The notes: generated by a model not told the origin, from the letters alone. A stretch of 63,768 nucleotides of DNA, filler included, from Collodictyon triciliatum (GCA_043381765.1; 9 parts of 9 records of this genome joined end to end with filler, not necessarily neighbours in it), one strand, 5' to 3'. Counted from the whole stretch's first letter, positions 7,387 through 59,806 are shown. Numbers and translations are program-made.

Positions 7387-7486
7387 NNNNNNNNNNNNNN
7401 NNNNNNNNNNNNNNNNNNNNNNNNNNNNNNTTAATTAATTAANNNNNNNNNNNNNNNNNNNNNNNNNNNNNNNNNNNNNNNNNNNN
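7387..7486. other. Artificial contig linker (N44-TTAATTAATTAA-N44)
   Basis: Identical 100-nt spacer with stops in all six frames, recurring about every 7.47 kb. Confidence 0.98.
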
Positions 7487-14869: not shown

Positions 14870-14969
14870 NNNNNNNNNNNNNNNNNNNNNNNNNNNNNNN
14901 NNNNNNNNNNNNNTTAATTAATTAANNNNNNNNNNNNNNNNNNNNNNNNNNNNNNNNNNNNNNNNNNNN
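14870..14969. other. Artificial contig linker
   Basis: N44-TTAATTAATTAA-N44. Confidence 0.98.
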
Positions 14970-22352: not shown

Positions 22353-22452
22353 NNNNNNNNNNNNNNNNNNNNNNNNNNNNNNNNNNNNNNNNNNNNTTAA
22401 TTAATTAANNNNNNNNNNNNNNNNNNNNNNNNNNNNNNNNNNNNNNNNNNNN
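22353..22452. other. Artificial contig linker
   Basis: N44-TTAATTAATTAA-N44. Confidence 0.98.
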
Positions 22453-29834: not shown

Positions 29835-29934
29835 NNNNNNNNNNNNNNNNNNNNNNNNNNNNNNNNNNNNNNNNNNNNTTAATTAATTAANNNNNNNNNN
29901 NNNNNNNNNNNNNNNNNNNNNNNNNNNNNNNNNN
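29835..29934. other. Artificial contig linker
   Basis: N44-TTAATTAATTAA-N44. Confidence 0.98.
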
Positions 29935-36336: not shown

Positions 36337-37305
36337 CTACTGTGAAGGGGCTAGCACCGGAAAGAAATCAGTGATAGCGAGTTGGTCAGGTGGGTGTCCC
36401 AACTGGTTGATTGGTTGCATGGGTAACAGTGGTTGGATATGCTGTGGGAGATATCGCACGACACATTCCCTCATCTCTCTTCGCTTGCTGTCAGAGTAGC
36501 AAAGAATGCGGGCGTGTTTCAGCAGGCTGTTCAGGAAGCTGTATTGCACGAGGCTCTCAAGCCTGGATACATTGATTTCTCGTTCGGGTGAATCATTGGA
36601 GCGAGAGAATGCACGCACACTCCATAAGGCCCACAGCATATGTCCCCTTGTGACTGTCCAGAGTATTCTAGAGTCGTGGGTCATTTGGTATTGTGGGCCA
36701 AACAGGATGTCAGACGCGCTGAGTCGATTGGGAGCATAATCAAGCTCAGAGAGCATCTTGTGGGCGGATTCTGTCACTTTTTGAGCAAGAGAGCACTTCG
36801 CAAATGTGTGTTCGATAGAGTCATCTCCACTATGGCACATGGTGCAGTCTGGAGAGGTCGTTGCTGCATGGACTACACGCACATCTATCCACAGATCTCT
36901 GTTTAATGTATTGAGCAGTAGGGCGCGGTGTTTTGGGAGTAGCTAAGATATGTGGGCTTGCTGCCAGTTTTGTACTTTTGATTTTCGTAGTGATGAAGTT
37001 GCGGCAGATGTCTTCCAGCTCCTTCAGCCTTTGGGGATTCAGCAAAGTGCTTTTCATGTTGTAGAGAAGGGTCGACAGCATCACTTGGTTCCAAAACCTT
37101 ACTTTCCCCACGTCCGAGAGATGAAAGTTGCTCCACACTGATATTTTCGACTTGATGTCTTCAACCAGGCTTGTCCATTTGTTATCCGATTGTGGACCGA
37201 ATATGATACCAAGATACTTGAGTGGATGTGACGGTGGCTTCCACACAATGTTTCCTGGAAACATCAGTCCATCCTGAAACCCAAAAAGAATTCCATCTGT
37301 CTTGT
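36337..37305 (-). mobile_element. 3' remnant of an L1/Tx1-clade non-LTR retrotransposon ORF2 (RT thumb + C-terminal zinc finger), disrupted
   Basis: LKYLGIIF...WTSLVEDIKSKISVWSNFHLSDVGKVRFWNQVMLSTLLY is the post-RT signature. After a frame break near 36900 come CTMCHSGDDSIEHTFAKC (CCHC zf-RVT) and LWALWSVR. The usual spacer between these regions appears to be deleted. Confidence 0.85.
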
Positions 37306-37405
37306 NNNNNNNNNNNNNNNNNNNNNNNNNNNNNNNNNNNNNNNNNNNNTTAATTAATTAANNNNNNNNNNNNNNNNNNNNNNNNNNNNNNNNNNNNNNN
37401 NNNNN
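37306..37405. other. Artificial contig linker
   Basis: N44-TTAATTAATTAA-N44. Confidence 0.98.
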
Positions 37406-37993: not shown

Positions 37994-40900
37994 TTGACTC
38001 CGAATGACTGAAAACAAATGCGAGATGCGAAATATTCGTCTCTAGAGATTAATTCAAACTTCGTATGTTGTGGGTGGCTTTAAATCTTGCTCCTCTGCCT
38101 TAACGGGTCTAATAACATTTCCTACTTCAATTTCTCCAATTCTTTCTTTCAAGCTCTGGTTGAATTAAAATGAAAGATAAGTACTTAATGCACAAAATTT
38201 GATGGTCAACTGGAATAAGTTTGGCGAGTCTAATTCACGTACCCAGATTACTGTCAAGTTTACAAACTTATACTTACCTGGTAAGTTTGTTCAGATATTA
38301 GAATCTGCCCACCGAGTGCCTTTCGACTTAATCTAACAGCTGTAGAAAGTGGCTACTCAAAATTTCGAAATGTTTAGAATACTGACTGATAGAAAAGATA
38401 ATTATTACTATTGAAAACGGGCTCATTGATATTTTTAGTGTACATATTACCTTTCCAGTATATTGAGTATGTTCGTTTACTGCATCTTTTTTTGCAGTGC
38501 AGGTTCCAGTATTCAATCCCTACATAATCGAATATATTTCACATGACTAAATAGCTGGTTCGCGTGTCATCGTGCTCACTCAAGTAAATAAAAAAAGTAT
38601 GTTTAAAAACCACAATTTTAATCCTGTAAAGTGGAGACGAAAAATGTAACATGAAAGAAAATGGATTAATTTTACCATTTGAACACGAAGCCCTTTCATT
38701 GTGCCTTCGTATATTTCTTTTCCTAACGGGTGAGACAGCAGCGATTCAGGCCATATATATTCTTGTAACTCGTACTGAACCGCTACACAAAACCTAGAAT
38801 AATAGAATTAGAAAAAAAATTACAATGTCCAACTTTGATATATGATTTCCAGATTACTTGACAGCATCGTAGGCCTCTTGAAAGACAATCACAAAGTTCT
38901 CCCCATCATTCTGGCTAATATACCCGTGGTTTTTTCGTGCAATCTATGATCATGTTTTTCATTAACTGCATAAAGAAACGCAATTATATCCGGCTGGTTC
39001 CTATTCTTCTTATTCTTGGAAAAAAATTGATCATATTAGATTTTAAAAAAGGAAAGCATAACCATATACCAACCTGTCTCACAATACTATTATGATTTAG
39101 GACAGCATCACACATAGCATCAGGAATTTCGTCCCACAAAGTTTCTGACCCCGCTACTCGAGTGCATACTACAGTTACTTCGCCATCTGGAGGTTTATCT
39201 GGAGAACTTATCATTCTCTGCATAATTTTAAAATATTTGGATCATTAATAAAGTTGGTATAAGATATATAAATGTGTCCACATATTTGTTCTTGTCATCA
39301 AGGAAAACATGAGCTATATTTCTGAAATAATTTCGATACCATGAATGATGATGAAGACGTTCTCGAAGCCTCTGTAATGACCTTAAATAGAATAGATCCT
39401 GGTTTAGTAATATCTAAATTATTTTTTTCAATGCAGTAGATGATTTTTATAGAGGATTAATTTTGATAAATTCCTTAATGTATAACTTACTGATATGCTT
39501 TTCGCTAGTTGTTGGAACGTAGGTCTCTCCAGAGGGTCCTGAGCCCAAGCTGATGTCATAATAGACTTTACATCCTCTGGTAGATTTTCCTCTAATTTTG
39601 GTCTCAATCTCGACATCAAAACCTGCGTTGTCACAGCCAATACGCTTTCCACATCATAATACGGGTCTTTTCTTGACATGATTTCCCAAGCGATAATACC
39701 AAAACTATAAACATCAGCAGCAACTTTGTATTCATCTCCTCCGATAACTTCTGGGGCGAGCCAAAGAAATGAGCCGACCCTTTCCTCTTGTTCATTCGAA
39801 CCTTGCATGATTGTCAACCCAAAGTCACTGTGTCGTAATATCATATTTATTAGTTCATTTTGTATCTTGTAAAATTCATGAATAAGCAATATTGGTGGGA
39901 ATTACCTGACTTTCAGACGAAGCCGGTCATCAACCTATTCATTTAATTATGAACAAAAAAGAAACAAAAGAAACAAAAGAAACAAAAGAAACAAAAGAAA
40001 CAAAAGAAAAAGAAAAAGAAAAAGAAAAAGAAAAAGAGAAAGAGAAAGAGAAAGAAACACAAGAAACAAAAAAGAAACACAAGAAACAAAAGAAACAAAA
40101 GAAACAAAAGAAACAAAAAAGAAAAAAGAAAGAGCGGTAAGCAGAAAATCTTCAACTTATAATGATCAATTTAGTTACGTACCAAAACATTCAAGCTTTT
40201 CAAGTCTCGGTGCAGTATCGGCGGATTCGACATATGCAAATACTGCATTCCTGTCCAATATTCGTTTTTCATATATGAAATATCGATGATTTCATTTGTA
40301 ATAAAAACGTCTTAAAATAAAATAAGAAACCTTTGCAAATATCCGCCATGAACTGGACTTTTTGGTAATGAGGAATATGTTTGTTTTCATCGTGGAGAAC
40401 GTCATACAAACTTCCGAACTGCATGAATTCACAAACAAGACAAAGATTTCCCCCTTCAAACACAGCGCCCATGTAAAGCACGATATTTGGGTGGCGTAGT
40501 TCTCTGGTTCAATTCGAAATTGATGAATGGGTTGAGAAAATGTGTGTAGTTCATAATAAAGGATAAATGTTTGAAGCTAACGTTCCTATTCTCATTTTTG
40601 GATTAAAACATTACACCATGACTGATATTTCTGCTTTGAATGATTCTATCGACTCTTTGCTTATGCTTTTTTCATGTATTTTCTTAATCGCAACTTCTGC
40701 TCCTCTCCATTCTCCCTTGTAAACCTGAAGTATAATTTTAGGTTGACGAGTTGAATGAACATTGCTAAATCTCAAAAAGAAAACTTAAAGGGTAAGTGAT
40801 AGCAAACATCTACCATGATATCAATGTTTTTAAAATCAATATAATATTATTTACTTGATGCAATATTCATTTTAGACGTGAAAAAAATGAAAATGAAATC

Positions 40901-44773: not shown

Positions 44774-44873
44774 NNNNNNNNNNNNNNNNNNNNNNNNNNN
44801 NNNNNNNNNNNNNNNNNTTAATTAATTAANNNNNNNNNNNNNNNNNNNNNNNNNNNNNNNNNNNNNNNNNNNN
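44774..44873. other. Artificial contig linker
   Basis: N44-TTAATTAATTAA-N44. Confidence 0.98.
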
Positions 44874-50776: not shown

Positions 50777-51984
50777 TTTTTCCCGCCTCAGTCTTTGAGC
50801 CCTGTGCAAACGAGCCCAAAAGCTTCAAAATAAAAGAATACAAATTCCATATCACACTCAAAGATTTTAGGCACATCTACGGTTGAATGTATGAGTGATA
50901 TATTATTTTTTTAAGCTGCGAATGGAGAAGGAAGCTTAAAAAGAAAAACCAAAACCAAAACCAAAAACCAATAACCAAAAAACCAAAACAACCAGAATTT
51001 TTTTTCACAGTTTTTATTCCTATGACTGAGACAATTGCTTATGGAATATTTATTGCACTCGGATTCATCCAAAAAAGCCTACTAGCATTACGATGTGGCA
51101 TGATTTACTGACATGACAACACACAAAACTGAATGCTTAGGATACCCCGTTCGCAAAGCAACGAAATTCCAATGCAAAAGTTGCCAGAAGCCGGTGAATC
51201 GCGATGATTGGAACGCGTATGTGCGTGTGTCGAAATCGTGTCCGTGGTGTTTGTCTCCACAAAACCCCAGCTACTGAGCCAAAGGTACACGGGGCCAAAA
51301 TAAACAGAAGGAAAGAGCAAGAGAGGAATCGGATTATCATGAGGGGATACTATGCGAAAGCACAGAAGATGATAATCAAGGCTCTATAAGCGAACACAAA
51401 TATTTTCTCTTTTTTCCTTTATTTCTCTTGTATCTTCATTCATAACATTCGCGGTTGTTGGCGGCAATATCCTTTTAATATTGGAGGTTTCGAGGCCATA
51501 AGAATGGCAATGAAAGTTTATAGACCAAGCGGAAACAATATTTCAAGTCTCCATTGAGCCTTTTTGACGACATATACCACGCAAAAGATGTGCCATAGCA
51601 AATAGAAAAGGGGAAATACCTCGTTTTTTATTGTCAGACTTTCACTCGCCAGGAAGTTCTATTCGCCATACCCCAGAACCCTCGAGGATGGTAGCTCACT
51701 TGCTGGGACGCTTTTGATAACAATTTTAAAAACTTTTACAAATAAAACCAAAATAATATCATTGCAATATCGGAACTGCAATCACACGCAAAACATTGCT
51801 TGTGAAGCACAATCGTACTTTGGAATGGGAAATGCGTTGTTTGGAAATGCTTCTTCTTCCCTCACTCTTTTGGACTGGTTATACATACCAAATGTATAGA
51901 TTAATCCACCCGAAATTTGTTTAAAATCAACAGCAACAAAAGCAACAGATGATTCTCAACCACCAGAAGTGACATTGATTTAAG

Positions 51985-52238
51985 AAATAAAGAAAAAGAG
52001 AAAAAAAAGAGAAAAAAGAGAAAAAAGAGAAAAAAAGAGAAAAAAGAGAAAAAAGAGAAAAAGAGAAAAAAAGAAAGAAAAAAGAGAGAAAAAAGAGAGA
52101 TAAAAGAGAGATAAAAGAGAGAAAAAAGAGAGAAAAAAGAGAGAAAAAAGAGAGAGAAAAAAGAGAGAAAAAAGAGAGAAAAAAGAGAGAAAAAAGAGAG
52201 AAAAAAGAGAGAAAAAAGAGAGAAAAAAGAGAGAAAAA
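51985..52238. repeat. A/G-rich tandem repeat (about GAGAAAAAAGA)n at contig end
   Basis: Direct tandem repeat. Confidence 0.9.
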
Positions 52239-52338
52239 NNNNNNNNNNNNNNNNNNNNNNNNNNNNNNNNNNNNNNNNNNNNTTAATTAATTAANNNNNN
52301 NNNNNNNNNNNNNNNNNNNNNNNNNNNNNNNNNNNNNN
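52239..52338. other. Artificial contig linker
   Basis: N44-TTAATTAATTAA-N44. Confidence 0.98.
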
Positions 52339-54499: not shown

Positions 54500-57400
54500 A
54501 TGCTTTTGGTTGCCTTTGTTGCCATCGTTTTCATTGGTTCATCGGCATCCTCAATTCATCCACGTCAAAGGTATATTTTTATTTATGAATATTTATAAAA
54601 TATACTTTCGACTCTAATGATGAAAACAGATGCCAGTATTCAAGAGATGAGTTGCTTTCCATGAAAGTCGAAGATGCATTCCAAATTCTGTTGAGCCACT
54701 ACGATGAGACATGTCCTTTGTTAAAAGAGAATGAGGATAACTTTTCAGGGTTGATAAATGGCTGCAAAGATGGAGGATACTCGCTAGAAAATGGACATGG
54801 TGCTGAATGGAATTACGGAAGAAAATTAACATCTAGTAATGTCGATTTCTACAAAGATATTCATTCGCCAAAACGAAGTGGAAACAGAGAATGGGGGTTG
54901 AGGAATGAAGAGAACCGAAATGTGGCCGATGGAAATACTGGGACTCAATACGAACTGCTTGTCCAACTTTATGGCTTACTTGGCGGCAACAATTGGTTTC
55001 GGAACACTGGATGGAAGAATGAAAGTACCCCGATTTGTGATTGGTATGGAATATCCTGCAGTCGGCGTTGTTCGGATGAGGACTATAAGGTGATTTCATG
55101 AAAAGATAATCAAATCTATTGATTTCATACTAAACACTTTTTCTTTTTATTTATAGAGCAACACATGTCCCATATTCAGAATCAGTATGTCTGGAAACAA
55201 CCTTAACGGTGACATTGAAGCTGCGTCTGTAGATTTTCGAGAAGCTCCAATTGTTGAATTACTTGGACATGAGCTACAACTTCATTTACGGAAATCTTCC
55301 AGACTTTAATCTCCCTAGTATTACGTATATGAACCTCTATGTGAATCGAATCAATGGAACGATTCCAGACTTTCAAGGAATGCCGAATATTCAACATCTT
55401 GAGATTGATGGGAATGAATTGGAAGGAACAATACCAAATTTTTCTGGAATACAGTCACTGAAGAAATTGTACATTGGTGCAAGTGAAAAAATTACAGGTA
55501 TCAAGTAACATCCAAGTAGATTTATTCTGAATTCTAATGATTTTTCCATTTCAGGAACTCTTCCAGATTTCTCAGCGTTGCCAAATATTCAGATTCTTTG
55601 CAATTTATAGCTGCAAAGTTTATGGTTTGTTTTTAATTATTTTATTCAAAGTGATGGCATAGAATTACTAACTTTTTTATATTTATTTTAGGAACAGTTC
55701 CAAACTTCAATGGAATTCCAAATGTTGAAATAATTTCTCTTCTCAGCAATCAATTGAATGGTAAGTTTTATCATTATCTCATGTGTTATTGATAAAAACT
55801 AATGTCACATTACAGGAACAGTTCCAAACTTCAGTGGTATTCCAAATGTTGAAATAATTTATCTTTACAACAACCAGTTGACTGGTAAGTTTTATTATTA
55901 TTTTCATGTGTTATTGATAAAAAAAACTAACTTTTTATTACAGGAACTGTTCCAAACTTCAGTGGAATCCTGAATGTTTTAGAAATTTGGCTTGGCGACA
56001 ACCATTTGACTGGTAAGTTTTATTATTATTTCATATATTATTGAAGCAAAAAAAAAACTAACTTTATATTATAGGAACGGTTCCAAACTTCAATGGAATT
56101 CCAAATGTTTTAATAATTTCTCTTTCCAGCAATCAATTGAATGGTAAGTTTTTATTATTATTTCATTCATTATTTATAAAAAACTAACGTTACATTACAG
56201 GAGCGGTTCCAAACTTCAATGGTATTCCAAATGTTTTAATAATTTCTCTTTACAACAATCAATTGAATGGTAAGTTGTTATTATTATTTCATGCATTGTT
56301 TATAAAAACTAATGTCACATTACAGGAACCGTTCCAAACTTCAGTGGTATTCCAAATGTTTTAGAAATTTATCTTTACAGCAATCATTTGACTGGTAAGT
56401 TTATATATTTTCATTTATTATTGATAAAAAAATTAACTTTACATTACAGGAATGGTTCCAAATTTCAGTGGAATTCCAAGTGTTAAAATAATATCTCTTT
56501 TCATCAATCAAATGGGTGGTAAGTTTTAATTTTATTTTTGTATTATAGGTACAAAACTAACGTTATATTACAGGAACCGTTCCAAACTTCAGTGGAATTC
56601 AGAATGTTTTAAGTATTTCTCTTTCCAGCAATCAATTGACTGGTAAGTTTTAATTATTATTTCATATAATATAAAAAAGAAGCTAACTTCATATTACAGG
56701 AACCGTTCCAAACTTCAGTGGAATTCCAAATGTTGAAAGGATATATCTTCACATCAATCAAATGGGTGGTAAGTTTTAATTTTATTTTTGTATTATTTAT
56801 AAAAACTGACGTTACATTAAAGGCACAGTTCCAAACTTCAGTGGAATTCCAAATCTTGAAAGGATTTATCTTGGAAACAACCAATTGAATGGTAAGTTTT
56901 AATCATTATTTTCATTTGTTATTGATACAAAACTAACTTTATACAATAGGAACCGTTCCAAACTTCAGTGGGATTCCAATCGTTTTATGGGTTTATCTTT
57001 ACAACAACCAATTGAATGGTAAGTTTTAATCATTATTTTCATGTATTATAGGTACAAAACTAACTTCATATTACAGGAACCGTTCCAAACTTCAGTGGGA
57101 TTCCGAATGTTATAGAGATTTGGCTTGGAATAAACCAATTGAATGGTAAGTTTTTATAATAATTTCATGTAATATTGATACAATACTAACTTAATACTGT
57201 AGGAACAGTTCCAAACTTCAGTGATATTCCGAATGTTGAATTAATTGATATTTCCAGCAACCAGTTGACCGGTAAGTTTAATTATTATTTTCATGTAATA
57301 TTGATGAAAAACTAACTTTTTATTAAAGGAACCGTTCCAAACTTTAGTGGAATTCCAAACGTTTCATGGGTTTATCTTGGAAACAACCAATTGAATGGTA

Positions 57401-59706
57401 AGTTTTATTATCATTTTAATGTAATATGAGTACAAAACTAACTTAATAAAACAGGAACCGTTCCAAGCTTCAGTGGAATTCCAAGTGTTGAAAGGATTTC
57501 TCTTTACAGCAATCAATTAACTGGCAAGTTATACTATTATTACATGTATTATTGATGAAAACTAACTTTATATTACAGGGACCGTTCCAAACTTCAGTGG
57601 AATTCCAAATGTTGAAAGGATTGATATCGAAAACAATCAACTGGATGGTAGGTTTTATATAATAATTTTTTGAATTATTGATGAAAAACTGACTTCATAC
57701 TACAGGGACCGTTCCAAACTTTAACGGAATTCCAAGTGTTAGAAGAATTTATCTTGACAGAAACGGATTGAATGGTAATTTCTACATATTTTACCTTTCT
57801 ATTTCTTTGATTTATATATTTCCTGTAATATTAATGAGCAATTTTAGGCGCAATTCCAAACTTTTCAAATATGCGTAAACTGGAGATTTTTTCTTTTTAT
57901 GACAATCAACTGGAGGGAGAGATTCCAGATTTCAAAGATTGCATAAACATCAAGGAAATAGTGTTGTTCCGCAATAAGTTTTCAAGCACATTACCGATGT
58001 TCAATCTGAATAACCTGACAAGACTGGATGTGAGCGAAAACCAAATTATTGGCTCTATCCCAGAAAATTGGATATTGCCTTCAATTAAATACATCGAATT
58101 GTCTTGGAACAAAATGAACGGCACAGTCCCAACCTATTTTCAGGGATTATTAGAACTGAAATCACTCGTTTTGTCTCACAATAAATTCTCTGGAAGCATG
58201 CCTGATTATTTTTGGAATCTGCCTAATATAGTCACTATTGATTTAAGAAACAACTCATTTTCAGGAAATGTTGCTGATTTTATCTCACCAGCTTCAGGCA
58301 ATTACGATTATTTTTATGAAAACCTTTTGCTTGATGACAACCAATTGAATGGAGCATTGAATTATAGACTTTTGGACTTTGTTATTAACATAAAAATTTT
58401 AAGCCTTAAGAATAACAACATCTCCAAGCTTGATTACCTTACAACTCTATTGAGATGGACTTCCCTTGACCTCACTGGAAATCCGATTGTTGGAAGCATT
58501 CCCGAATCATACATCGGGTTTTCAAAGCTTGAGTATCTGGGATTAAATAAAACATCGATGAATCACGGAACAGCTAATTTTCTTCCTGATTTCATGAATT
58601 TCACAACATCTTTCAATCTCCAAGATGAAACAAAACGCTACCTTTGTCCTTCTATTATTTCGAAATCTGGTCTGATTGAGTTAGAGGTTGACTTGAATCC
58701 AGAATACTATGACTTTGAATTTTGTAAATGCTTACCTGGTTATTTCGGCTTTGGAAATAATTGCGTTCGATGCCCAAGAGGATGTGATTGCCTTGATGGA
58801 ACGTCCTTGAAATTCTGTCATGCTTCACCAAGCATCACCTCTGTGAAATCAATACTGCCATGTCCACGTCGTGAGTCATGTGATATGTCGATTCCAGAGA
58901 AAATTTCGAATTCAAATACGACGGTCGAAATCATAGACCTGTGTCAAGAGGGCTATGAAGGTAATGCCTGCTCAAAATGTCAGAATGGATACGGAAATCA
59001 AGGAAGGTCGTGTTTGAAATGCGATAAAGGAACGATTTATTTAACCCTGATTCTTGCTTCGATTGGATTCTTTATGTTCATTTTCTATCTGTATTTCACA
59101 GAGACATCAAAATCAGGTAAATGTTACTAAATTATTTCACTTCATTCTTCTTATATTAATCAGAATATTTTTGTAGCGAAACTCAGGATAATAATGTTCC
59201 ACATGCAAACACTGTCGATTGTGTCCAGTGGAATCGTTCTTTCAGAAGATGCAAACAGCTTTATCGAAGTTTCATCGTCGATTGGTTCAATCCAATTTCC
59301 CAACCTTTCCTGTGTCCTTGGAGTAGACGATGTGTTTGCTTCTCTGATGTTCAGTTTTGTAAGAATACCAATCTTTATCGTCGTTGGCTCAGTCACGTAC
59401 TATTTCGGATATGGACACAAGCAGAACAAAGTAAGGATGAAAAAATACATTCAGTTATGAATATCCATATTGTTTCAGCTTCATCTTTAGTAGTACTAAA
59501 TTAATTATTTTGGCAGGCTGTTTTCATCGCATTGAATCTTCTGTTTTTTATATACTACTCGGTTGCAAGAGAGGTGTTTGGTGTTTTTGGATGCACCGTT
59601 TATGATGAAGGTGTGAATAAATGGTATCTGAATTTCAAGCCCTGGATTCAATGCAGCCCAGCCTCGGATGAATATCAAAAACTGCTCGCAATATCTGTCC
59701 CAGTTT
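54500..59706 (+). CDS. LRR receptor-like protein: signal peptide, LRRNT cap, about 30 plant-type (GxIP) LRRs, Cys-rich region and multipass membrane domain; 3'-truncated, with two apparent +1 frameshifts
   Basis: MLLVAFVAIVFIGSSAS signal; cap LVQLYGLLGGNNWFRNTGW...ICDWYGISC; LRRs of the LxLxxNxLxGTxPxF type; CQEGYEGNACSKCQNGY...CLKC; TM region KLRIIMFHMQTLS...YYSVAREVFGVFGC...YLNFKPWIQC, as in protist GPCR-related multipass receptors. The frame breaks near 55235 and 55598. Confidence 0.85.
55555..57847 (+). repeat. Tandem array of 18 exon+intron units (about 126-bp period), each exon encoding one 23-aa LRR
   Basis: 69-nt phase-1/phase-1 exons start at 55692, 55816, 55944, 56075, 56201, 56326, 56450, 56574, 56700, 56823, 56950, 57077, 57203, 57329, 57455, 57579 and 57706; a 70-nt exon starts at 55555. 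Introns are mostly about 55-60 nt, with GTAAGTT donors, AACTAAC-like branch sites and AG acceptors. Confidence 0.95.
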
Positions 59707-59806
59707 NNNNNNNNNNNNNNNNNNNNNNNNNNNNNNNNNNNNNNNNNNNNTTAATTAATTAANNNNNNNNNNNNNNNNNNNNNNNNNNNNNNNNNNNNNN
59801 NNNNNN
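59707..59806. other. Artificial contig linker
   Basis: N44-TTAATTAATTAA-N44. Confidence 0.98.

Follow-up and report, generated by a model that had tools for sequence, protein, structure and literature searches.

How a single-celled organism might come to vary the binding surface of a receptor encoded in its germline is the question raised by a gene at positions 54500-59706 of a stretch of DNA of 63,768 nucleotides from Collodictyon triciliatum (GCA_043381765.1), which, at its whole length, is referred to below as the window. The central part of this gene is an array of 17 short exons, each of which encodes a single leucine-rich repeat (LRR) and which vary most strongly at five residues per repeat. 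A first-pass annotation, made from the sequence alone, had taken this arrangement for a candidate diversifying, immune-like receptor. The reading at which we arrive, and to which we assign a probability of about 0.7, is that of a germline gene belonging to a family of the type found in the flagellate Diphylleia rotans, in which one LRR exon was amplified to 17 copies, the copies were reshuffled, and the five residues changed at or above the neutral rate; the gene is possibly a recently disabled copy.

The cassette array

A single tandem array was located at 55690-57778 by Tandem Repeats Finder (period 126, 16.6 copies, 78% matches), and a 30-nt scaffold pattern allowing at most three mismatches had 16 matches, all of them within 55697-57613, where none were expected from 100 shuffles. 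The same pattern revealed no additional cassettes elsewhere in the 7.4-kb segment that carries the gene or in the rest of the window. Parsing by splice sites resolved the array (55692-57774, plus strand) into 17 exons of exactly 69 nt, starting at 55692, 55816, 55944, 56075, 56201, 56326, 56450, 56574, 56700, 56823, 56950, 57077, 57203, 57329, 57455, 57579, and 57706, and 16 internal introns of 54-62 nt, which are alignable and show a mean pairwise difference of 0.234. Each cassette encodes 23 residues and opens with the last two bases of a glycine codon, followed by 22 codons and one further nucleotide, so that all flanking introns are in phase 1. All 17 cassettes are open in the coding frame and have stops in the other two (15 of them in the frame listing). 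Among the 17 donors, 14 read GTAAGT and one each GCAAGT, GTAGGT, and GTAATT, and most of the introns contain a CTAAC-type branch site. Repeat finder, scaffold pattern, and splice-site parsing together bear out the 17 intact phase 1-1 exons and the alignable introns described in the first-pass annotation, as well as its scaffold consensus. The interval given there, 55555-57847, holds for the 17 exons from 55692 onward but not for its opening exon at 55555-55624, which is not intact, being 70 nt long and containing a TAG.

The variable (x) positions of the 23-residue unit are residues 13, 14, 16, 18, and 19, at which 6, 6, 4, 8, and 5 different residues occur, respectively, and they coincide exactly with the five solvent-exposed x of the motif LxxLxLxxN. 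The combination of the five residues is different in every one of the 17 cassettes and agrees letter for letter with the signatures read earlier; tyrosine or tryptophan accounts for 16 of the 85 x residues and the charged residues E, R, D, and K for 23, in keeping with the statement that both kinds are common there. Apart from these positions, an N-F-S sequon is present at scaffold positions 5-7 in 12 of the 17 cassettes, which, if the ectodomain is glycosylated, would place a regular row of glycans along the array.

Amplification and exchange between units

The mean scaffold identity between the 17 units is 0.82. Within single proteins of D. rotans that belong to the same family (see below), it averages 0.21-0.34 and reaches at most 0.72 (17 proteins, 307 units). 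As these relatives lack near-identical cassettes, the amplification of one exon-plus-intron unit that produced the array is specific to this gene.

Whole units are 69-93% identical to each other, their identity is independent of their distance in the array, and no higher-order periodicity was found in it. Single units are mosaics: the intron of unit 7 is identical to that of unit 9 in its first half and closest to that of unit 11 in its second half, and units 10 and 11 have the first half of their introns in common. Such a mosaic is to be expected if units that do not adjoin exchange sequence by gene conversion or unequal crossing-over, and the recombination within the array that had been postulated is thus visible as segments of one unit with different nearest neighbours.

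Rate of change at the variable positions

In Nei-Gojobori counts pooled over all pairs of units, the proportions of non-synonymous (pN) and synonymous (pS) differences were 0.498 and 0.275 for the x codons and 0.090 and 0.320 for the 18 scaffold codons, compared with the intron difference of 0.234. By pN, the x codons therefore change about five times faster than the scaffold, for which the ratio of non-synonymous to synonymous divergence (dN/dS) is about 0.2. Diversity per column amounted to 0.549 at the first and second positions of the x codons (n=10) versus 0.236 in the introns (n=56; Mann-Whitney P = 9e-5), 0.235 at the third positions of the scaffold (n=18; P = 1e-3), and 0.098 at its first and second positions (n=36), and parsimony on three trees required 4.6-5.7 steps per column at the former versus 1.6-1.8 in the introns. 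The x positions are hypervariable in just the sense first proposed, their diversity being well above that of scaffold, introns, and synonymous sites.

A neutral expectation was obtained by simulating five codons down the intron tree in 400 runs, with an observed pN of 0.494 for 16 units. At the intron rate, this value was reached in 0 of 400 runs with intron base frequencies and in 1 of 400 with equal frequencies; at twice that rate it was reached in 36% or 63%, respectively, and the best fit is about twice the intron rate. Change at the x positions is no slower than in neutral DNA, and probably faster. A ratio of non-synonymous to synonymous rates (omega) above 1 at the x codons is suggested by this one array, clearly when measured against the introns and marginally against synonymous sites.

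Under the explanation which we favour, a unit of 126 bp, composed of a 69-nt phase-1 exon for one 23-residue LRR and a short intron, was amplified in tandem to 17 copies, which were then reshuffled by unequal crossing-over or gene conversion. The exons are most likely spliced constitutively into one long LRR solenoid. Selection has kept its scaffold, and the five concave-facing residues of each repeat have evolved at the neutral rate or above it; the array would in this way build a new, extended binding surface. The protein would be exposed at the cell surface and bind a ligand there, new specificities would have been selected for, and any signalling would pass through the C-terminal membrane domain.

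A receptor-like family in Diphylleia rotans

The relatives of the gene were sought at the protein level. A word-seeded search returned two close proteins from contigs of 1-2 kb, P0001 (50% identity) and P0002 (60%), followed by plant-type LRR proteins. An exhaustive search yielded 18 proteins of 534-2178 residues which cover query residues 2-424 at E values of 1e-138 to 1e-73 and 31-39% identity; this part of the query comprises the C-terminal part of the LRR region, a Cys-rich stalk, and the first membrane span, and it is collinear in all 18. Every one of the 18 full-architecture relatives is a paralogue cluster of D. rotans (EukProt EP00002, Trinity transcripts; CRuMs, Collodictyonidae) and, as far as can be judged from sequence similarity among named records, the family is found only in this species. 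A search of metagenomes with a degenerate DNA pattern for the scaffold gave 0 matches, and a scan with the protein alignment gave 342 stretches, none of which was confirmed. We found no paper describing a family of D. rotans proteins with LRRs, a Cys-rich region, and a multipass domain, and the search for longer proteins homologous to the stalk was negative.

Proteins of the family begin with a signal peptide, which is followed by an N-terminal motif and a cap, then by 11-26 recognisable LRRs of 23 residues, a Cys-rich stalk, and a C-terminal domain of about 330 residues with 6-8 strongly hydrophobic segments. The family alignment contains 32 invariant columns, 15 of which are cysteines, and the signal peptide, the N-terminal Cys motif, the LRRNT cap, and the idiosyncratic first LRRs follow each other in the same order in the window and in the family. 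The stalk matches DUF7630 in 10 of the 18 members at E values up to 10. In its complete form the membrane domain would be expected to have about 7-9 hydrophobic segments; its motifs R.GFLY and WEL..RR occur in the relatives (the window gene is cut before them). Intron positions are shared as well: the intron position at 59431 is matched by the retained-intron tails of the D. rotans isoforms P0126 and P0127, and introns just before the glycine of G.IP are also indicated in relatives by intron-started open reading frames (P0293, P0001) and by a 12-residue alternative-acceptor variant (P0284). In the tree of the core region, the window gene groups with P0002 and P0001 (support 99/96), and this clade is nested among D. 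rotans paralogues, which indicates that the family diversified before the window organism and D. rotans separated. A profile of the whole family had its best matches in the Protein Data Bank (PDB) to ectodomains of plant LRR receptor kinases (5hyx, 6s6q, 4mn8), and all 60 matches listed are LRR or LRR-containing proteins. The multipass receptor architecture proposed in the first-pass annotation is borne out at the level of signal peptide, LRR ectodomain, and several membrane spans.

In some members (P0280, P0303, P0237, P0171), the LRRs are preceded by adhesion-type modules, namely NIDO domains or FG-GAP repeats, one to three in number. The immune role suggested earlier was a guess, and Diphylleia is a predator; given the adhesion domains of the relatives and this habit, the sensing of prey or substrate is as likely a function as an immune role.

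The membrane domain

No Pfam family reached threshold for the membrane domain, neither in the pieces present in the window nor in the relatives. A word-seeded search with the D. rotans domain returned only four proteins, all members of the family, and a PDB sequence search gave a single match with an E value of 0.93, which is not meaningful. In a feature-based search of the Atlas, the D. rotans domain adjoined clusters holding PF06011 (score 0.96, 224 of 256 features shared). Against the PF06011 model itself, two of the 18 members gave sub-threshold matches (E up to 10, best 0.14), and the highest score, 10.9 bits in P0290 (E 0.19), stays below the gathering score of 28.5 bits. The domain may thus resemble that of the fungal Flc/TRP-like proteins, which we regard as a lead rather than as membership. 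According to an excerpt on these proteins, the FLC proteins consist of an N-terminal lumenal domain and PF06011 and act in calcium homeostasis (PMC9600462). In both cases a multipass domain comes after an N-terminal domain that is lumenal or extracellular, but this N-terminal domain is ML-like there and made of LRRs here, and the Pfam threshold is not reached here.

Layout of the gene and of the window

The window is a chain of segments of about 7.4 kb, joined at 7387-7486, 14870-14969, 22353-22452, 29835-29934, 37306-37405, 44774-44873, 52239-52338, and 59707-59806 by spacers of 44 N, a 12-base linker with stops in all frames, and another 44 N; neighbouring segments therefore need not adjoin in any genome, and genes are cut at the joints. 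The gene lies within segment 52339-59706, its 3' end is cut at 59706, and the sequence beyond is unrelated. The region is AT-rich (G+C 29-32%). Short spliceosomal introns, whose donors read GTAAGT and whose branch sites are of the CTAAC type, mark the source as a eukaryote. All parts of the gene are on the plus strand. The predicted protein begins with a signal peptide and an LRRNT_2 cap; these are followed by about 33 plant-type LRRs, a Cys-rich stalk, and, at the C-terminus, a multipass domain.

Exon 1 (54500-54570) begins with an ATG at 54500 and, in translation, encodes a hydrophobic signal peptide; it is followed by an intron at 54571-54629. Exon 2 (54630-55089) encodes the N-terminal region with the conserved Cys motif and the LRRNT_2-type cap, which scores barely above the Pfam cut-off (20.9 versus 20.7 bits), and is 43% identical to residues 160-203 of the D. 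rotans protein P0299. Exon 3 (55157-55499) contains the first LRRs, which have no introns between them, in two overlapping frames separated by a +1 frameshift near 55232-55235; the second of these frames (55236-55499) matches LRR_4 and LRR_8 and is collinear with residues 243-321 of P0299 at 51% identity. A single LRR exon (55555-55624), delimited by splice-site parsing, precedes the array, and one contig of sequencing run X1 lacks one letter at 55601. The array is closed by a diverged intron of 73 nt with the GTAATT donor (57775-57847). A large intact exon of 1269 nt (57848-59116) encodes about ten more LRRs, the Cys-rich stalk, and the first membrane span; apart from its likeness to the D. 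rotans proteins, it matches LRR_4 (2e-16), LRR_1, and LRR_8, and DUF7630 below cut-off. The multipass domain continues in an exon at 59177-59430, recognised by translation and by the family motif FH.QTLSI, and in the exon at 59517-59706, seen in translation, which is cut by the segment end (N from 59707), so that the gene ends after the third or fourth hydrophobic segment. Over the window, the LRR models score 60.1 (LRR_4, cut-off 27), 56.6 (LRR_1, cut-off 20.6), and 51.8 (LRR_8, cut-off 27); scores above the curated cut-offs for LRRNT_2 and the LRR models mark the ectodomain as plant-type.

Scans of the window against Rfam and for tRNAs gave no matches. The end of the preceding segment (51983-52238) is a long purine-rich simple repeat with a period of 11/22 and about 23 copies. 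In other segments, a zf-RVT domain (a reverse-transcriptase zinc-binding domain) was found at 36340-36939 and a fragment of a protein kinase domain at 39431-39898, both on the minus strand. Segment 22667-29834 contains three long intronless open reading frames (259, 592, and more than 1500 residues) that match no Pfam family and are unlike the intron-rich LRR gene; they may be derived from a virus or a mobile element.

Splicing of the cassettes

Donors, branch sites, and acceptors of the gene are near consensus and its introns are about 57 nt long; weaker sites are one GC donor and two AAAG acceptors. Near-consensus signals and very short introns fit constitutive splicing. Evidence from transcripts comes from contigs of two sequencing runs, X2 and X3, whose loose ends carry what we take to be the template-switch oligo of cDNA synthesis. 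The predicted introns 54571-54629 (59 nt) and 59431-59516 are skipped with GT..AG ends in contigs of both runs, and 59117-59176 in contigs of X2 only. In these contigs, 69-nt cassette units are joined consecutively with no introns between them, and three units decoded by hand have x residues unlike any in the window; in other organisms, related cassette arrays are accordingly expressed, with serial splicing of their units.

Among 23 pairs of D. rotans isoforms from 14 genes, none differed by the presence or absence of a whole LRR, which is weak evidence given the short-read assemblies; one isoform lacked 12 residues, one had a single LRR replaced, and the rest were truncations or retained introns. 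The replacement concerns P0171 and P0295, near-identical proteins from the same Trinity gene, in which one LRR is swapped for a different LRR of similar length, with two substitutions just downstream. This difference could reflect mutually exclusive exons or an allele or paralogue with a swapped cassette, and the nearby substitutions suggest the latter.

The last intron of the array contains an element of 20 nt (57819-57838) with complementarity to the acceptor junctions of most cassettes. Its duplexes with them averaged -11.96 kcal/mol, compared with -3.53 +/- 1.99 in 334 control windows and with 0 of 300 shuffles as extreme (family-wise P 0.025), and in the local fold the element pairs with the acceptor of exon 17; however, it was found post hoc, corresponds in position to the stretch from branch site to acceptor in the other introns, and is in part a palindrome, and the fold of 213 nt is no more stable than shuffles (z = -0.10). 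The element could be docking-like, a relic of a unit, or a product of chance, and is a weak lead.

Objections and alternative explanations

Several observations weigh against the reading preferred here. With respect to rates, the parsimony counts are inflated by recombination, synonymous sites have diverged about 1.5 times as much as the introns, and at 1.5 times the intron rate the simulations reach the observed pN in 3% (intron frequencies) or 13% (equal frequencies) of runs. The excess over neutrality hence hinges on the proxy chosen, which leaves positive selection short of proof: the excess of non-synonymous change at the x codons that the first-pass annotation expected is present, but an omega above 1 is suggested and depends on the proxy. 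With respect to the gene itself, the frame is broken as assembled by the +1 shift in a T run near 55232-55235 and by a second one, an extra T in the T run 55597-55599, in the exon 55555-55624 with its in-frame TAG; either extra T may be a sequencing error or a real mutation, and the copy may accordingly be a pseudogene or carry assembly errors. A reading of this TAG as a sense codon, as in ciliate-type codes, was rejected since the exon is also one base too long. Copy number and order of the array are those of the assembly. The runs X1-X3 share only 6-8% of the sampled words with the window, and apart from a few identical short contigs their contigs stem from relatives or paralogues, so that they provide no check on copy number, frameshifts, or expression of the window gene; the evidence for expression is that of the relatives. 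The link to PF06011, finally, consists of one feature-based match and two weak members out of 18, for a domain that is cut in the window.

An alternative is that the locus is a dead gene, or the array an assembly artefact, and that its pattern is a fossil or a chimera of paralogues. We consider this somewhat unlikely. It is favoured by the occurrence of two frameshifts and a stop within 400 nt 5' of the array, by an array known from the assembly without reads of the source organism, by X1 contigs in which joints jump ahead or backward along the array, and by the abundance of pseudogenes in fast-evolving receptor families, ROCO loci with frameshifts or stops having been classed as such (excerpt of PMC3341825). 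However, all 17 cassettes (1173 nt) are open, their splice sites are intact, and the scaffold dN/dS is low, from which it follows that any inactivation must be recent. The downstream exon of 1269 nt has no frame break. Both frame breaks, moreover, lie 5' of the array and consist of one extra T within a T run, a common sequencing error. Every unit is unique, which makes a collapse less likely, and a 151-nt X1 contig is identical over 57255-57405, across the join of units 13 and 14, although it may come from the source sample and would then not be independent. The rate contrast itself could have another origin in concerted evolution, in which scaffold and introns of an old array of unlike LRRs were homogenised by conversion while purifying selection kept the x residues. 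The mosaic units and the lack of a distance effect indicate that conversion or unequal exchange is active, the x identity of 0.22 is near that of old D. rotans LRRs (0.08-0.24), and some x differences, such as GAA versus TTA at codon 13, need two base changes. Conversion tracts would, however, repeatedly have had to spare a core of 21 nt within a unit of 126 bp, most of the codon states at x are linked by single-base steps (judged by eye from codon lists, with no computed network), and a homogenised array is present in no D. rotans relative. We therefore regard such an origin as distinctly unlikely, and selection on the x positions would be required by it as well.

The other alternatives concern the way in which the cassettes are used. 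A repertoire produced by splicing, in which cassettes are skipped or chosen in combinations and one gene gives many receptors, would be open to an array in which all cassettes have 69 nt and phases 1-1, so that any subset stays in frame; the few weaker splice sites, the complementarity of the element in the last intron to most acceptors, and its local pairing with exon 17 would be in line with it, and splice variants with different sets of LRRs are described for Ectocarpus ROCO genes (excerpt of PMC11378527). Nevertheless, we hold it to be very unlikely. The 14 GTAAGT donors, strong branch sites, and introns of about 57 nt have the look of constitutive intron definition, the contigs of relatives join their cassettes consecutively, the D. 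rotans isoform pairs differ by no whole LRR, and the intronic element is subject to the reservations given above. The combinatorial splicing considered in the first-pass annotation thus finds no support, and constitutive splicing into one long LRR solenoid is most likely. Somatic assembly of the type known for the variable lymphocyte receptors (VLRs) of lampreys, in which individual cells would copy cassettes into a germline gene that is incomplete, has in common with the present case only the notion of LRR cassettes whose variation falls on the concave face. Here the gene that contains the cassettes is complete, and each cassette has its own donor, branch site, and acceptor; further cassettes were found neither in the 7.4-kb segment nor in the remainder of the window; the cap is of the plant LRRNT_2 type and not of the vertebrate type; and the organism is unicellular. 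Such assembly, to which we give next to no probability, is ruled out by the anatomy of the locus, there being neither an incomplete germline gene nor outside donor cassettes in the window.

Significance and comparison with known systems

Arrays with one LRR per exon and a fast-evolving binding face have so far been described for the ROCO genes of brown algae. The same design in a relative of the CRuMs, a deep and little-studied group, suggests that it originates repeatedly wherever LRR exons have symmetric phases, and here the array belongs to a presumably secreted, membrane-anchored protein whose output domain is another one. The newly noticed family, with at least 18 diverged paralogue clusters in D. 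rotans, combines a plant-type LRR ectodomain with an uncharacterised multipass domain and offers a concrete way into the question of how prey, surfaces, or pathogens are sensed by a predatory flagellate; the value of the finding is limited by the two frameshifts in this copy. A more far-reaching version, which we consider highly speculative, would be that collodictyonid-like protists possess a large family of surface recognition receptors of their own, with a plant-type LRR region directly on a TRP/Flc-like channel domain; single genes would enlarge and retune their binding surface through amplified LRR exons, and the element of the last intron would loop out downstream cassettes, so that in-frame receptors of graded length result. 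If it were true, diversity based on LRR cassettes would have been invented independently a third time, after lamprey VLRs and brown-algal ROCO proteins, and would be coupled to ion flux instead of a kinase or GTPase.

The closest design is that of the brown-algal ROCO genes. As far as excerpts of two publications on them go, each LRR is encoded there by a 72-nt phase-2 exon starting at the glycine of G..P, and shuffled exons, pseudogenes, and splice variants are reported along with positive selection on the concave face (Zambounis et al. 2012, PMC3341825; Teng et al. 2024, PMC11378527). Common to both systems are the single LRR per short symmetric exon starting at this glycine, the tandem duplication and shuffling of exons, and the variable residues on the concave beta-face, and the architecture, which the first-pass annotation did not know from described systems, thus has a precedent in what these excerpts describe (PMC3341825, PMC11378527). 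Within the same limits, the differences are that the exons have 69 nt and phase 1 here, that a Cys-rich stalk and a multipass domain on a secreted or membrane-bound protein take the place of the ROC-COR GTPase, that the ROCO genes belong to stramenopiles and the present gene to a CRuMs-related lineage, and that splice variants are reported there and were not seen here. No match to ROC or COR was obtained in any piece of the window or in any relative, the C-terminus being cut in the window and the relatives ending in the membrane domain.

In insect Dscam1, according to an excerpt, mutually exclusive exons for half Ig domains are separated by long introns and chosen by conserved pairs of docking and selector sequences (PMC3535345). 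Tandem arrays of exons of equal length are common to both, and a candidate complementary intronic element is present here; the repeats of a solenoid can, however, all be included, and the introns are only about 57 nt long. With the D. rotans family, the window gene shares the order of parts, the conserved N-terminal motif, intron positions, and the 23-residue type of LRR, whereas near-identical cassettes were found in none of the 17 D. rotans proteins examined (maximum 0.72 versus a mean of 0.82 here), and some members have extra NIDO or FG-GAP domains. In plants, diversifying selection at xxLxLxx is described for the LRRs of R genes, and the solvent-exposed x residues are hypervariable. The plant LRR receptor kinases and receptor-like proteins resemble the present protein in the LRRNT_2 cap, the plant-type consensus, the best PDB matches, and the hypervariable x residues; they differ from it in that a multipass domain takes the place of the kinase here, the LRR has 23 instead of 24 residues, and each repeat of the array has an exon of its own. 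Lamprey VLRs are put together in somatic cells from flanking cassettes that lack splice sites, and their LRR modules vary on the concave surface; this variable face is common to both systems, but the modules described here are ordinary germline exons.

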